Shown here piece after piece: positions 22,752 to 34,979 of a DNA stretch of 37,133 nt. The notes beneath the pieces were generated by a model. It was given only the letters and a program-made list of their open reading frames with translations, searched no databases and was not told where the DNA came from. The stretch lies in assembly GCA_964555485.1 (NCBI GenBank), contig CAZKTB010000001.1, positions 5,201 through 42,333 on the forward strand, written 5' to 3'. Made by a program: the position numbers and the translations under genes. This stretch comes from an uncultured Thiopseudomonas sp. GTDB lineage: Bacteria; Pseudomonadota; Gammaproteobacteria; Pseudomonadales; Pseudomonadaceae. Each line of letters begins with the position of its first letter. Position 1 is the first letter of the stretch.

Positions 22752-23630
22752 TTACTGTTTCTTGGCTACGATGTCGGCGTCCGCATCGATACCCAGGCTA
22801 TAGCCCAGGGATACATGGTGGAAGCGGCCGGCCGCGTTGTCATCGTGAATGGCAAAACCGAAGTTGTAGGTGTTGCCGCTCTTCAGCGCCACGTCACCTT
22901 CACCACCAGTCAGTTTGCGGGTGAATACCACGCTCCAGTTGCCGTCTTCCAGCTTGCCTTCGGCACCAACCAGTGCCTGGCCACCTTCCATGACACGCTT
23001 GTCGGCAACATAGCCGTCATAGGCCTTGTTCTCGCCGCTGCGCCACTGGTTCAGGTCGTAGTAAACGCCATCGGCCAGGGAGCCGTCCTTGACGTACTTG
23101 GTCTTGCTGTCATCGCCATCAGGCATGGTGCGGGCATCACCGTGGCAGCTGCCCCAGCAACCGCCCTGGGCTGCCAACTCAACCTTGCCGCCTTCTTCCA
23201 GCATGTAGGCCAGCTTGACCGGGTTATCCGCGTCCATCTTCGGCGCGCCGGAGGCATCTGGCTGTTTCCAGGTGAAGCGCAGGTACAGGTTTTCGCCGTC
23301 GTGGGCAGCCTGGACTTTAGCGTTGATGAAAGCAGCCTTGCCAGGAATCGGGGTTGGCTCGATCTTGCCGCCGCTGGCAATCAGCTGGCCCATGTCGCCA
23401 ATTTCTTCAGAGTGACAACCCATGCAGGTTTCGCCACGCTTGAGTACGCGGGCGCCACCATGGGACGGGCCGCGCATGATCCACTCCACCGGTGACACAC
23501 CGGGATACAGCAGATCCACATTGGTTGCCTCAACCTTGCTCCAGTCGGCCGGAGCGGCAGCCATTGCGGTCCCTGTGGCAAGAGCAAATACAGCACTGGC
23601 AACGCCAGTCATCATCATTTTTTTCATCAT
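22752..23630 (-). CDS. nirB: Diheme cytochrome c-552 NirB (P. stutzeri type; unrelated to the NADH-dependent nitrite reductase NirB)
   Basis: Signal peptide ending AMA; mature N-terminus AAPADWS; heme sites CMGCH and atypical CWGSCH; C-terminal FGFAIHDD..GRFHHVS; lies downstream of nirT. Confidence 0.9.
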   Translation of the reverse strand: MMKKMMMTGVASAVFALATGTAMAAAPADWSKVEATNVDLLYPGVSPVEWIMRGPSHGGARVLKRGETCMGCHSEEIGDMGQLIASGGKIEPTPIPGKAAFINAKVQAAHDGENLYLRFTWKQPDASGAPKMDADNPVKLAYMLEEGGKVELAAQGGCWGSCHGDARTMPDGDDSKTKYVKDGSLADGVYYDLNQWRSGENKAYDGYVADKRVMEGGQALVGAEGKLEDGNWSVVFTRKLTGGEGDVALKSGNTYNFGFAIHDDNAAGRFHHVSLGYSLGIDADADIVAKKQ

Positions 23631-23661
23631 TGCTTACTCTCCAGTGGATTGGAAAACTGTG

Positions 23662-24276
23662 TTAGTCCCAATCTTCGTCTGTCATGTCTTCAGGCAGATG
23701 GTGAGCGATGCCCTTATGACAGTCAATACAGGTCATGTTGTCTTCTATCGCCATTTCATGTTGCACGCTGGCACGCTTTTTCTGCTTTTCGATATCCATG
23801 CTGTCAAAGCTGTGGCAGTTGCGACATTCGCGGGAGTCGGAATTTTTCATCCGCTTCCACTCGCTTCGGGCGAGCTTCAGGCGTTTGGCCTCGAACTTCT
23901 CGCGGGTATCGATGGTACCAACCATCTTGCCCCAGAGTTCGCGGGAAGCCTGGATTTTACGAACCATCTTGTAGCCCCACTCCTTGGGTACGTGGCAGTC
24001 AGGGCAAGTAGCCCGCACACCGGTACGGTTGGAGTAGTGGATGGTTTCCTGGTATTCAGGGTAGACATTGTCGCGCATCTCGTGACACGAGAGGCAAAAT
24101 TGTTCGGTGTTGGTCGCTTCCAGGGCCGTGTTGAAGCCGCCCCAGAAAATGATGCCGCTTACAAATCCGATCAACAGCAAGCTGGCAAGGGAATAATGGA
24201 CACTTGGACGACGCAGGGTAGCAATCAGACCGGAAAGGCCCTTGGCTCCTGTGTTACTGCTGTCTTTATCTGCCAT
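23662..24276 (-). CDS. nirT: Membrane-anchored tetraheme cytochrome c NirT (NapC/NirT family)
   Basis: N-terminal [15 protein letters not shown], and four CxxCH motifs (CLSCH, CPDCH, CRNCH, CIDCH). Confidence 0.94.
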
Positions 24277-24294
24277 TGGCTTTTTCCTTCTGAG

Positions 24295-24322
24295 TTCCCC
24301 CCACCGTTGCCGGCGGGGGGAA
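24295..24322 (-). promoter_or_regulatory. Stable stem-loop between nirS (copy A) and nirT
   Basis: Sense RNA UUCCCCCCGCCG-GCAA-CGGUGGGGGGAA: 12-bp stem with one G-U pair, GNRA loop, no U-tract. Confidence 0.7.
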
Positions 24323-24346
24323 GTTTGGTCACTTGTTCAACCAGAC

Positions 24347-33042: not shown

Positions 33043-33068
33043 TTTAGTGCATCCTCAAGGCATTAAGG

Positions 33069-33089
33069 GAGCAGGCATTTTGCCTGCTC
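33069..33089 (-). promoter_or_regulatory. Stem-loop between nirS (copy B) and nirM
   Basis: Perfect 9-bp inverted repeat GAGCAGGCA-ttt-TGCCTGCTC, no U-tract. Confidence 0.6.
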
Positions 33090-33101
33090 ATTCAGTCTAC
33101 G

Positions 33102-34826
33102 TCAGTAAACGCCGTGCTGTGTATTGTTTACGTTGAATTTACCAGTTGGGGTAATCAGGCGCTTGTCCTTGATCACCTTTTTCAGCTTTAGGGTCTTGTC
33201 ATCGACAACCACGATGGCAGACACCTCATCCTGCTGACTCCAGACGGAGAACCAGACTTCGTCACCAGCCTTGTTGTACTCAGGCTGCAGTACACGCTTG
33301 ACGCCGCCGTCGATATTAGCCCATTCCGCAATCGGAAGCACCTTATAGCCGGCTTCCAGATTGTTGATGTCGAATACCGCAGCAGACTGGCTGACCGCTT
33401 CAACCGGGTTAAAGGTGGTGTCCAGATAGAGGTTGGTCGAGTTGGGGTGGGTCTTGATGAACAGCGAACCACCACCCTGGCCCTTCAGGGTCTGGACCAC
33501 TTTCCATGCCTGCTCCGGATGACCTTCAGGGTCGGTACCGATCAGGCTGATGGTGTCATCACCCAGGTGGCTGGTAGCCCAGACCGGACCAAACTCCGGG
33601 TGCACGAAGTTGGTACCACGACCCGGGTGCGGGGTACGACCCACATCCACGATTCCGGCCAGCTTGCGCTCCTTGGAGTCCACCACCACGATCTGGTTGG
33701 ATTCGTTGGCGGCACTCATGAAGTAGCGCTGCGTGCTGTCCCAGCCACCGTCATGCAAGAACAGGCTGGTGGCGATAGTGGTGATGGTCAGGTTATCCAG
33801 ATCTTCGTAGTTGACCAGCATGATACGGCCGGTTTCCTTGACGTTGACAATGAATTCCGGATGCTCGCCAGAGGCGAGAATGGCAGCCACACGTGGCTCC
33901 GGGTGATATTCCTGGGTATCAGCGGTCATGCCGCGAGTGGAGACGATCTGCAGCGGCTCCAGGGTTTCACCATCCATGATGGTGAACTGTGGCGGCCAGT
34001 AGGCACCGGCAATCGCATACTTGTCTTCGTAGCCCTTGTATTTGGAAGTCTCTACCGAGCGTGCCTCGATACCGATCTTGATGGTGGCGACCACGTCCGG
34101 GCTCTTCATCCACAGGTCCACCATGTCCACCTTGGCATCACGGCCAATCACCATCAGATAGCGGCCGGACGCGGAGATGCGGGAGATATGTACTGCGTAA
34201 CCGGTTTCGATCAGCTTGACGATTTTCTTGGTGTTGCCGTCAATCAGGGCTATCTTGCCATCGTCACGCAGCGTGACAGAGAACAGGTTGGACAGGTCCA
34301 GCTTGTTCAGCTGTTTCTTCGGACGCTTCTCGGGCGGAACGATAACCTTCCAGGAGTCCTTCATCTCGGCCATGCCCCACTCCGGCGGAGTTGGCGGGGT
34401 GTGCTGGATGTAGTTGGCCATCAGGGTGATCTGCTCGGGACTCAGCTCGCCAGAAGTACCCCAGTTGGGCATGCCGGCAGGAGAACCGTAGGTGATCAGC
34501 GCTTCCAGATACTGCTGACCGCGGGCCTGAGTGATGTCCGGGGTCAGCGGCTTGCCGGTGGCACCCTTGCGCAGTACACCGTGACAACCGGCACAGCGCT
34601 GGAAGTAGATCTCCCGCGCCTGCTGGAATTCCGCATCAGTCAGGTCAGGAGCGCCTGTGGTGCGGACAATGGTGGCATCCTTCAGGACCTCCGGCGTGGC
34701 CGCACCCATGTAGGCCGCCTCCGGATCATTGACCTTGGTATCTGCTACCGCTGTGGCAATCGACAGGCTGAGCAGCGATAATGCAGCAGCGGCCCCGGTC
34801 ACCAGCTTGTTGGTCACATAGTTCAT
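33102..34826 (-). CDS. nirS: Cytochrome cd1 nitrite reductase, copy B (P. aeruginosa type)
   Basis: GAGG RBS then ATG at 34826 (574 aa); signal peptide; N-terminal Tyr arm (AAYMGAA..VRTTGAP); [60 protein letters not shown]. Confidence 0.96.
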
Positions 34827-34965
34827 GTGAGTATTTCCTCGATTTTTATCTTGTATTATTAAATTCCGCTCCGAAAAAAGCCGGAGCAGTGCGTGCAAGC
34901 GCACCGATCCTATACCAAACCGCTATCTAACCGGGCCTTCAGGCCGCTACACCATTCGTCATATC

Positions 34966-34979
34966 TTGATACAGATCAA
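34966..34979. promoter_or_regulatory. FNR/ANR/DNR box in the nirS-nirQ divergent promoter
   Basis: TTGAT-ACAG-ATCAA, a perfect consensus match. Confidence 0.9.

Follow-up and report, generated by a model that had tools for sequence, protein, structure and literature searches.

The closest described relatives of the locus reported here are two pseudomonad gene clusters for cytochrome cd1 nitrite reductase (NirS), nirSTBM(CFDLGH) of Stutzerimonas (Pseudomonas stutzeri) ZoBell and nirSMCFDLGHJEN of P. aeruginosa, together with the Rhodocyclaceae that carry two nirS genes. In the following, NirS of the ZoBell/Thauera type (clade 1b) is called type A and NirS of the P. aeruginosa type (clade 1a) type B. 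According to Pold et al. 2024 (PMC10999283), several NirS copies occur in 16% of the assemblies on their tree, 85% of these from distinct clades. PMC7054561 and PMC4250227 describe multicopy nirS in Rhodocyclales and cite condition-dependent expression in Thauera and a fitness advantage, and PMC12756365 a Thauera with two nirS genes of 66.2% similarity. The subject of this study is a stretch of 37,133 nt from an uncultured Thiopseudomonas sp. (the whole of which is referred to as the window), in which one nirS gene of each type is found beside a single set of heme d1 genes. Multi-clade nirS pairs are already known, and the pair described here is real, old and maintained. No paper on a nirS pair in Thiopseudomonas or P. 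flexibilis was found in a search by listings, with most subscription papers outside it, and Table S4 of PMC10999283 may list them; host-related genus names are absent from six supplementary PDFs of that paper.

Organization of the nir locus

Both nirS genes are open and lie on the minus strand with a gap of 7.06 kb, which agrees with the first-pass annotation of the range 22752-34979, where two full-length copies had been placed about 7 kb apart on one strand. Copy A (24347..26038) is followed on the same strand by nirT (23662..24276), encoding a membrane-anchored tetraheme NapC/NirT cytochrome with four CxxCH motifs (TIGR02161, 323.7 bits against a cut-off of 310.6), and by nirB (22752..23630), encoding a diheme cytochrome (CxxCH and CxxxCH; PF09459, E 2e-38) that shares 60-95% identity with orthologues adjoining type A nirS. 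Copy B (33102..34826) is followed by nirM for cytochrome c551 (32728..33042), nirC for a monoheme cytochrome c (32366..32704), nirF (31173..32369; PF02239, E 1.5e-130, no c domain), nirD, nirL, nirG and nirH for siroheme decarboxylase subunits (29277..31167; NF040707/NF040708) and the radical SAM gene nirJ (28093..29271; TIGR04051, 611 bits, above cut-off), all on the minus strand, and the gene order that had been read from the letters is borne out by these profile matches.

The window holds one set of heme d1 genes, as first annotated, but that set had been left incomplete: nirN (19509..21011, minus strand; heme d1 dehydrogenase/maturation, c and d1 domains; PF02239, E 1.8e-142) lies outside the annotated range and was missed. 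It is about 7 kb past nirJ and behind two terminators, cut off by a hydrolase-like gene between nirJ and copy A, by nirSTB, and by an opposed glpD-like gene between nirB and nirN; in G004 and G009, nirJ directly precedes nirN. The host genome (76% complete) has four d1-domain genes, namely the two nirS, nirF and nirN, and all are inside the window. A separate nirE was not found in G000, G002, G004, G007 or G009, each of which has one CysG-sized match over the cut-off, so CysG is the likely source of siroheme. Terminator-like hairpins follow nirJ (28039..28059, minus strand) and nirB (22701..22730, minus strand; a 13-pair stem with a T tail), and nirSTB therefore looks like a transcription unit of its own.

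The two NirS proteins

Copy A has 563 aa (584 aa if an in-frame ATG at 26101 is used) and copy B 574 aa, and each combines a cytochrome c domain with a Cytochrom_D1 domain (PF02239; E 1.6e-148 and 5.7e-151, both below 1e-147). The heme c site, the axial Met and the three d1-site His of both copies align to the P. aeruginosa NirS structure (H54/M104/H196/H340/H382 in copy A, H82/M119/H213/H358/H400 in copy B). CAGCH and the d1 motifs AVH, LHDGG and PHPGRG are kept in both, as had been noted on first inspection, and none of the 74 NirS rows checked shows a broken catalytic motif. Copy B can be aligned over its full length with NirS of the PDB 5guw/1nir type, including the Tyr of the N-terminal arm (975 bits to 5guw_M). 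Copy A reaches 668 bits; the N-terminal arm is missing from it, and its c domain contains an insert of 13 residues. None of its nine PDB matches is a clade 1b structure. These scores of 668-975 bits against solved NirS, compared with 94-107 bits against 6rtd, set both proteins apart from NirN and NirF. The locus very probably encodes two working enzymes that share heme d1.

The leader of copy A (26039-26101) is strongly conserved, and the upstream ATG in frame with the gene would add 21 residues; in G004, G009 and G112 this frame is preserved via a compensated shift. A hairpin of 4-5 pairs also precedes the ribosome site in the leader; one of its pairs has changed from G-C to A-U, in a single inherited event. 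These features weakly suggest a regulatory element.

Phylogeny and selection

The two copies are 56% identical (302/536). In the careful tree, built from 48 of the 74 NirS rows with NirN left out, they are parted by two fully supported branches, and forcing them together is rejected (p-AU 7.9e-16); the earlier view that they are neither sister sequences nor a recent duplication is thereby upheld. Copy B falls in a clade of 20 pseudomonad rows (support 100/99) and is native, since its branching repeats the GyrB order of the species. Copy A falls in a clade of 21 rows (100/100) with the nirSTB enzymes of Stutzerimonas and Thauera, to which it is 79-91% identical, and within it in a subclade of nine rows (100/100) that also includes G112 and two members of a different genus; it was likely gained by horizontal transfer. 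The donor differs by tree, the quick tree placing copy A among Stutzerimonas rows and the careful tree among Thauera rows, and the NirN outgroup of the quick tree gave an unusable root. The free tree mixes G112, G324 and G314 into the type A rows of the host genus, and a genus-only clade is not rejected (p 0.35). We infer that copy A belongs to clade 1b and copy B to clade 1a, labels that rest on the statement, in PMC13086519 (2026), that nirTB is always beside 1b and never beside 1a.

The ratio of nonsynonymous to synonymous substitution rates (dN/dS) against G000 is 0.033-0.076 for copy A (six pairs) and 0.031-0.121 for copy B (eight pairs), and nirT and nirB are as constrained as nirS (0.04-0.07). 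Such values indicate that both copies are under purifying selection and are maintained. For both, dS to G004 and G009 exceeds 1.3 and GC content at third codon positions (GC3) tracks the host (0.69-0.74 vs 0.47-0.51), so their co-residence is old.

Electron supply

The first-pass annotation had assigned each enzyme its own electron donor. The part of this that stands is the tie between nirTB and type A: among 401 Pseudomonadaceae genomes searched, nirB is found in 28/28 with type A and in 0/88 with type B only, one further match beside a divergent nirS in G129 being excluded from both counts. Exclusivity does not stand, as nirM is kept in 9/9 pseudomonad loci with type A only (L040, which probably repeats L155, is not counted), so that both enzymes may receive electrons from c551. 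In each of seven genomes with type A, the only gene of the NapC family (PF03264) is nirT. A stray NapC was also considered for NirT and rejected, as napA was not found in any of 11 genomes, that of the host included. Cytochrome b of the bc1 complex is present in 5/5 genomes and narG in 10/15, again including the host. A complex prediction for NirS-A with NirB gave a score of 0.01 and a mark of 0.32 and speaks neither way. In PMC13086519, full nitrite accumulation is associated with clade 1b NirS accompanied by NirTB, and 1b NirS is assigned to full-accumulator Stutzerimonas such as ZoBell. The study also reports that nitrate brings nitrite reduction almost to a stop in full accumulators of clade 1b and not in 1a strains, the comparison being across different strains only.

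Codon adaptation was ranked for 1308 ORFs against a reference set of 19 small basic proteins, roughly 15 of which were judged by eye to be ribosomal. Copy A is in the top 3.4%, nirM 4.3%, nirB 6.2% and copy B 16.5%, which indirectly suggests that copy A is the bulk enzyme. Five RNA runs contain just 0.05-0.09 of the sequence words and are not drawn on here as evidence of expression.

Promoters and regulators

A class II promoter responsive to ANR/DNR is predicted for copy A at 26155..26196 (minus strand), with the box TTGAT-N4-GTCAT at 26196-26183 and a -10-like TAGTAT at 26160-26155; the box ends in T in 7/7 g1-group copies. Copy B and the divergent nirQ have in common a perfect FNR-type box, TTGAT-N4-ATCAA (34966..34979), the sole box in the window without a mismatch and perfect in 8/9 copies of the genus. 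A -10-like hexamer at class II spacing (-41.5 or -42.5) is found in 16/16 type A genes and 10/12 single or unlinked type B genes, as opposed to 0/8 linked type B genes. Transcription would be expected to start near 26148 for copy A, with the box at -41.5, and near 34900 for copy B. Before copy B, the nearest -10-like sequence, TAGGAT (34912-34907), would put the box at about -72.5, and in the linked type B genes of this clade the conserved TAGGAT implies -72.5, -73.5, -84.5 and -84.5, in steps of approximately one helical turn. The differing promoter layouts indirectly support a different use of the two copies.

The genome encodes one ANR-like and two DNR-like proteins, which we take to be such from their Cys patterns. 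A generic sigma-70 scan was uninformative (2 sites vs 6.2 expected), and inspection by eye of the regions upstream of the two nirS genes revealed no convincing pair of NarL sites. Between nirN and the glpD-like gene, a motif with one FNR-like half site (21060-21085) is conserved in G000, G002, G005 and G008 and may drive the cut-off nirN.

A possible division of labor

Taken together, we give a probability of roughly 0.5 to a specific split in which copy A would be a high-level enzyme fed from quinol via NirT and NirB and outcompeted by NarG, and copy B a bc1-c551 enzyme working meanwhile. Under anoxia, ANR/DNR would activate the class II promoter specific to nirSTB, with A as the bulk enzyme, and copy B would be read together with nirMCFDLGHJ from the re-spaced promoter, so that B and d1 synthesis would come on together. 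Copy B would take electrons from bc1 via cytochrome c551 and copy A from the quinol pool via NirT and NirB. Since NirT and NarG would both use quinol, A would stall while nitrate lasts, as reported for Stutzerimonas 1b strains; B would then hold nitrite down during the nitrate phase, and A would clear it afterwards. The donors need not be exclusive, as c551 may serve A too.

Several observations weigh against this division of labor. The dual genomes G004 (99% complete) and G005 (90%) gave no narG match, so nitrate competition is not the whole reason for keeping both enzymes. The sequences had been inspected before the -10 pattern was chosen, the eight linked genomes represent only two lineages, and two of the 12 single-copy or unlinked type B controls are also without a -10 match; promoter re-spacing is therefore just a lead. 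In the Thauera strain 27 of Etchebehere and Tiedje 2005, expression is reportedly constitutive for the copy resembling that of P. stutzeri and nitrate-induced for the other, so timing may differ from that proposed here. The codon adaptation of nirT is only average (top 52%), and nirM persists, as noted, in type A-only loci. PMC13086519 calls the role of NirTB unresolved, allows that NirT may instead activate cd1, and describes the 1b strain JM300 as a low accumulator.

The possible activating role of NirT, along with the nirM count, the codon use of nirT and the equal net charge of the two c domains (-4), would also fit a scheme in which c551 from bc1 feeds both enzymes, NirT and NirB serve only to mature or reductively activate A, and what sets the copies apart is their kinetics, regulation or handling of NO, not the electron route. 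We consider this somewhat unlikely, given that nirB is codon-adapted like the gene for an abundant protein and that no NirM match was found in 7/7 Rhodocyclales type A loci (with this query, in the flanks fetched). NapC/NirT proteins are, moreover, established quinol dehydrogenases.

Distribution and origin of the pair

Both types occur in 6/10 genomes of the host genus; of the rest, three carry type B alone and one, 58% complete, is without nirS. Of the 401 Pseudomonadaceae genomes, scored for at most three candidates each, 117 have nirS and 10 have two, these being the six of the host genus and 4/4 of genus g35 (the P. flexibilis/Serpens group). In Rhodocyclaceae, the family around Thauera (121 searched), 23 of the 83 nirS-positive genomes have two, with three pairs within 10 kb. 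The rarity originally ascribed to the arrangement was thus overstated: the pair occurs across the genus, reappears in another group of Pseudomonadaceae, and is common in Rhodocyclaceae, linked pairs included. The closest named match of copy A is from a Thiopseudomonas sp. (91% identity), and the type A protein of G002 is identical to one that NCBI names T. denitrificans.

The nirSTB cassette is found at four addresses, between nirJ and nirN in the linked layout seen here (the G000 group) and beside unrelated genes in G004, G009 and G112. The closed chromosome of G112 (L153; L192, G112:C1:2838000-2857999) has the arrangement nirQ | nirMCFDLGHJN, without nirS, and its sole nirS is in a type A cassette 1.8 Mb from the operon, adjoining a Mutator transposase; its gene content reads as a completed replacement. 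The layouts of the family thus comprise type B alone, the unlinked pair (G004, G009), the linked pair described here, the g35 tandem, type A heading the operon (ZoBell), and G112. The series is unrooted, and any order of events among them is inferred.

A slow replacement without division of labor, in which a mobile nirSTB takes over from the native gene and the two are retained for reasons of dosage or of the position of copy B at the head of the d1 operon, could draw on the four addresses, the neighboring transposase and the operon without nirS of G112, and on the 18/28 type A genomes that are without a second nirS. It seems improbable nonetheless. Copy B is unrelaxed among linked genomes (dN/dS 0.05-0.07 vs 0.04-0.08 for gyrB), both copies have been kept across dS >1.3, the pair is also present in a second lineage with a separate type A gene, and G112 indicates that the native gene can be deleted without loss of the operon.

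We tentatively propose, as a possibility less probable than the split itself, that a self-contained nirSTB cassette moving among Pseudomonadaceae gave rise to a stable two-branch system (quinol-NirT-NirB bypassing bc1, plus bc1-c551), with re-spacing of the native promoter in linked pairs. G112 and the tandem of P. flexibilis would be intermediates that explain the origin of ZoBell nirSTBM, and G001, G006 and G007 would take d1 from neighbors. In that sister lineage (L031, G001:C54; L032, G006:C48; L033, G007:C119), an intact nirS-nirM pair is followed by a terminator-like hairpin and ndh. It is under selection (dN/dS 0.03-0.05), and searches of the three genomes (79%, 86% and 90% complete) gave no match for nirF, nirN, nirJ, nirL, nirB or narG; all three are possible heme d1 auxotrophs.

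In the P. flexibilis/Serpens group (L049, L068, L146, L148, L150, L151), an FNR-type box is found upstream of each tandem nirS, and loss of the second nirS would yield the ZoBell operon. The type A signal peptides of Stutzerimonas and g35 (L154, L156, L160, L146) are by eye like those of pseudomonad type B and unlike those of Thauera, hinting that type A was captured by recombination into the start of the native gene. Two nosZ genes are also present in G000, G002, G005, G008 and G112, as two full matches in G002 and G112 and as one full match plus partial or overlapping pieces in the other three.

Integrity of the assembly and neighboring genes

The first-pass annotation had asked for a survey of related genomes and named a chimeric assembly of two strains as a possible flaw. 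Both nirS genes occur in identical order on single contigs of three other species, G002 (357 kb, 100% complete), G005 and G008, so the two-nirS order recurs and a chimeric assembly is rejected. Reads cover 30/30 bins without joints in 4/4 DNA runs from four studies; run X1 was not counted as independent because it is possibly the source sample. Contig pieces from two studies, X9 (25763-27012, 26822-28059) and X4 (26196-28459), overlap from inside copy A into nirJ. With this evidence and the intact motifs of all 74 NirS rows, an assembly or binning artefact, or a non-functional copy, is very improbable, even though the assembly is 76% complete in 356 contigs, none of the contig pieces listed covers both nirS genes, and nirQ departs from the reads. 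The last point concerns seven letters at 35195-35245 that are unlike all four runs and probably reflect an assembly error in the window; among them is the Walker A codon, which reads Lys here and Thr in the runs.

On the plus strand, divergent from copy B, are nirQ, nirO and nirP (35062..36712; CbbQ/NirQ, COX3 and COX4_pro matches). The glpD-like gene for an FAD glycerol-3-phosphate dehydrogenase (21138..22685, plus strand; NF008899, E 8e-100, just under the cut-off) has an equivalent position in G002, G005 and G008. The passenger gene for a 494-aa alpha/beta-hydrolase-like protein (26386..27870, minus strand; weak PGAP1/DUF7379 matches below cut-off) is present in G002 and G008 and absent at this place in G005; it ranks in the bottom 8% for codon adaptation and has no PADLOC match. 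In G008, whose assembly has nirF broken into two ORFs, nirJ and the hydrolase gene are separated by roughly 8 kb (L021:12102-19124) carrying glycosyltransferase, HlyD, TolC-like and TackOD1/GGDEF genes, so this spot accepts inserts. No Rfam family was above chance in 19000-37133. The region 338-17271 carries an ordinary set of pseudomonad genes: Pil-Chp chemosensory genes, gshB, a tonB-like gene, algH, ruvX, pyrR, pyrB and pyrC.

Implications

Release of NO and N2O depends on whether a denitrifier accumulates nitrite, and such accumulation is desirable for anammox-coupled wastewater treatment. With both NirS types and one cofactor pathway in one cell, clades 1a and 1b and the role of NirTB become comparable in one background. 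Proteins identical to the type A enzymes of relatives bear the NCBI names Thiopseudomonas denitrificans, Pseudomonas flexibilis and Serpens gallinarum, species known from culture, and single deletions could therefore make this comparison. The family-wide series of layouts, in which steps of gene replacement are preserved, offers a route to the origin of the textbook ZoBell operon. Counts of nirS overstate cell numbers where such organisms are abundant, and DNA depths in landfill and sludge suggest that they can be.

Comparison with known systems

Like the dual-nirS Rhodocyclaceae (Thauera sp. 27, Thauera JM12B12 and Aromatoleum L108), the genome described here has two divergent nirS genes, and in Aromatoleum L108 both types are even in one d1 cluster, with nirSTB inside. 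Those organisms belong to a different bacterial class, and in Pseudomonadaceae the pair is uncommon (10/117), being confined to two groups among those searched. The tandem of P. flexibilis/Serpens (L048, L049, L067, L068), nirS(1b)-T-B-nirS(1a)-M-C-F-D-L-G-H, has the same two types with one d1 set, both under purifying selection. It differs in that the cassette is ahead of the native gene and that its type A gene branches apart from copy A, so it was likely gained separately.

Copy B resembles the P. aeruginosa system in the order nirS-M-C-F-D-L-G-H-J and in the divergent nirQOP. It is not the same contiguous operon, as there is no nirE match, nirN is split off, the class II spacing is lost and a second nirS is present, but the copy B gene set probably works like that of P. 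aeruginosa. With the ZoBell system, the locus shares a type A enzyme followed by nirT and nirB (81-91% identity to Stutzerimonas type A) and an FNR-type box at class II spacing. In ZoBell, however, the single nirS is of type A and stands at the head of the d1 operon, and each of the 56 nirS-positive g33 genomes has one match; in P. stutzeri nirSTBM, nirM and the d1 genes are 3' of nirSTB, a place taken here by a terminator and the opposed glpD-like gene. In the Thiopseudomonas locus, nirSTB instead seems to form a unit apart, closed by its own terminator, alongside a retained native nirS.

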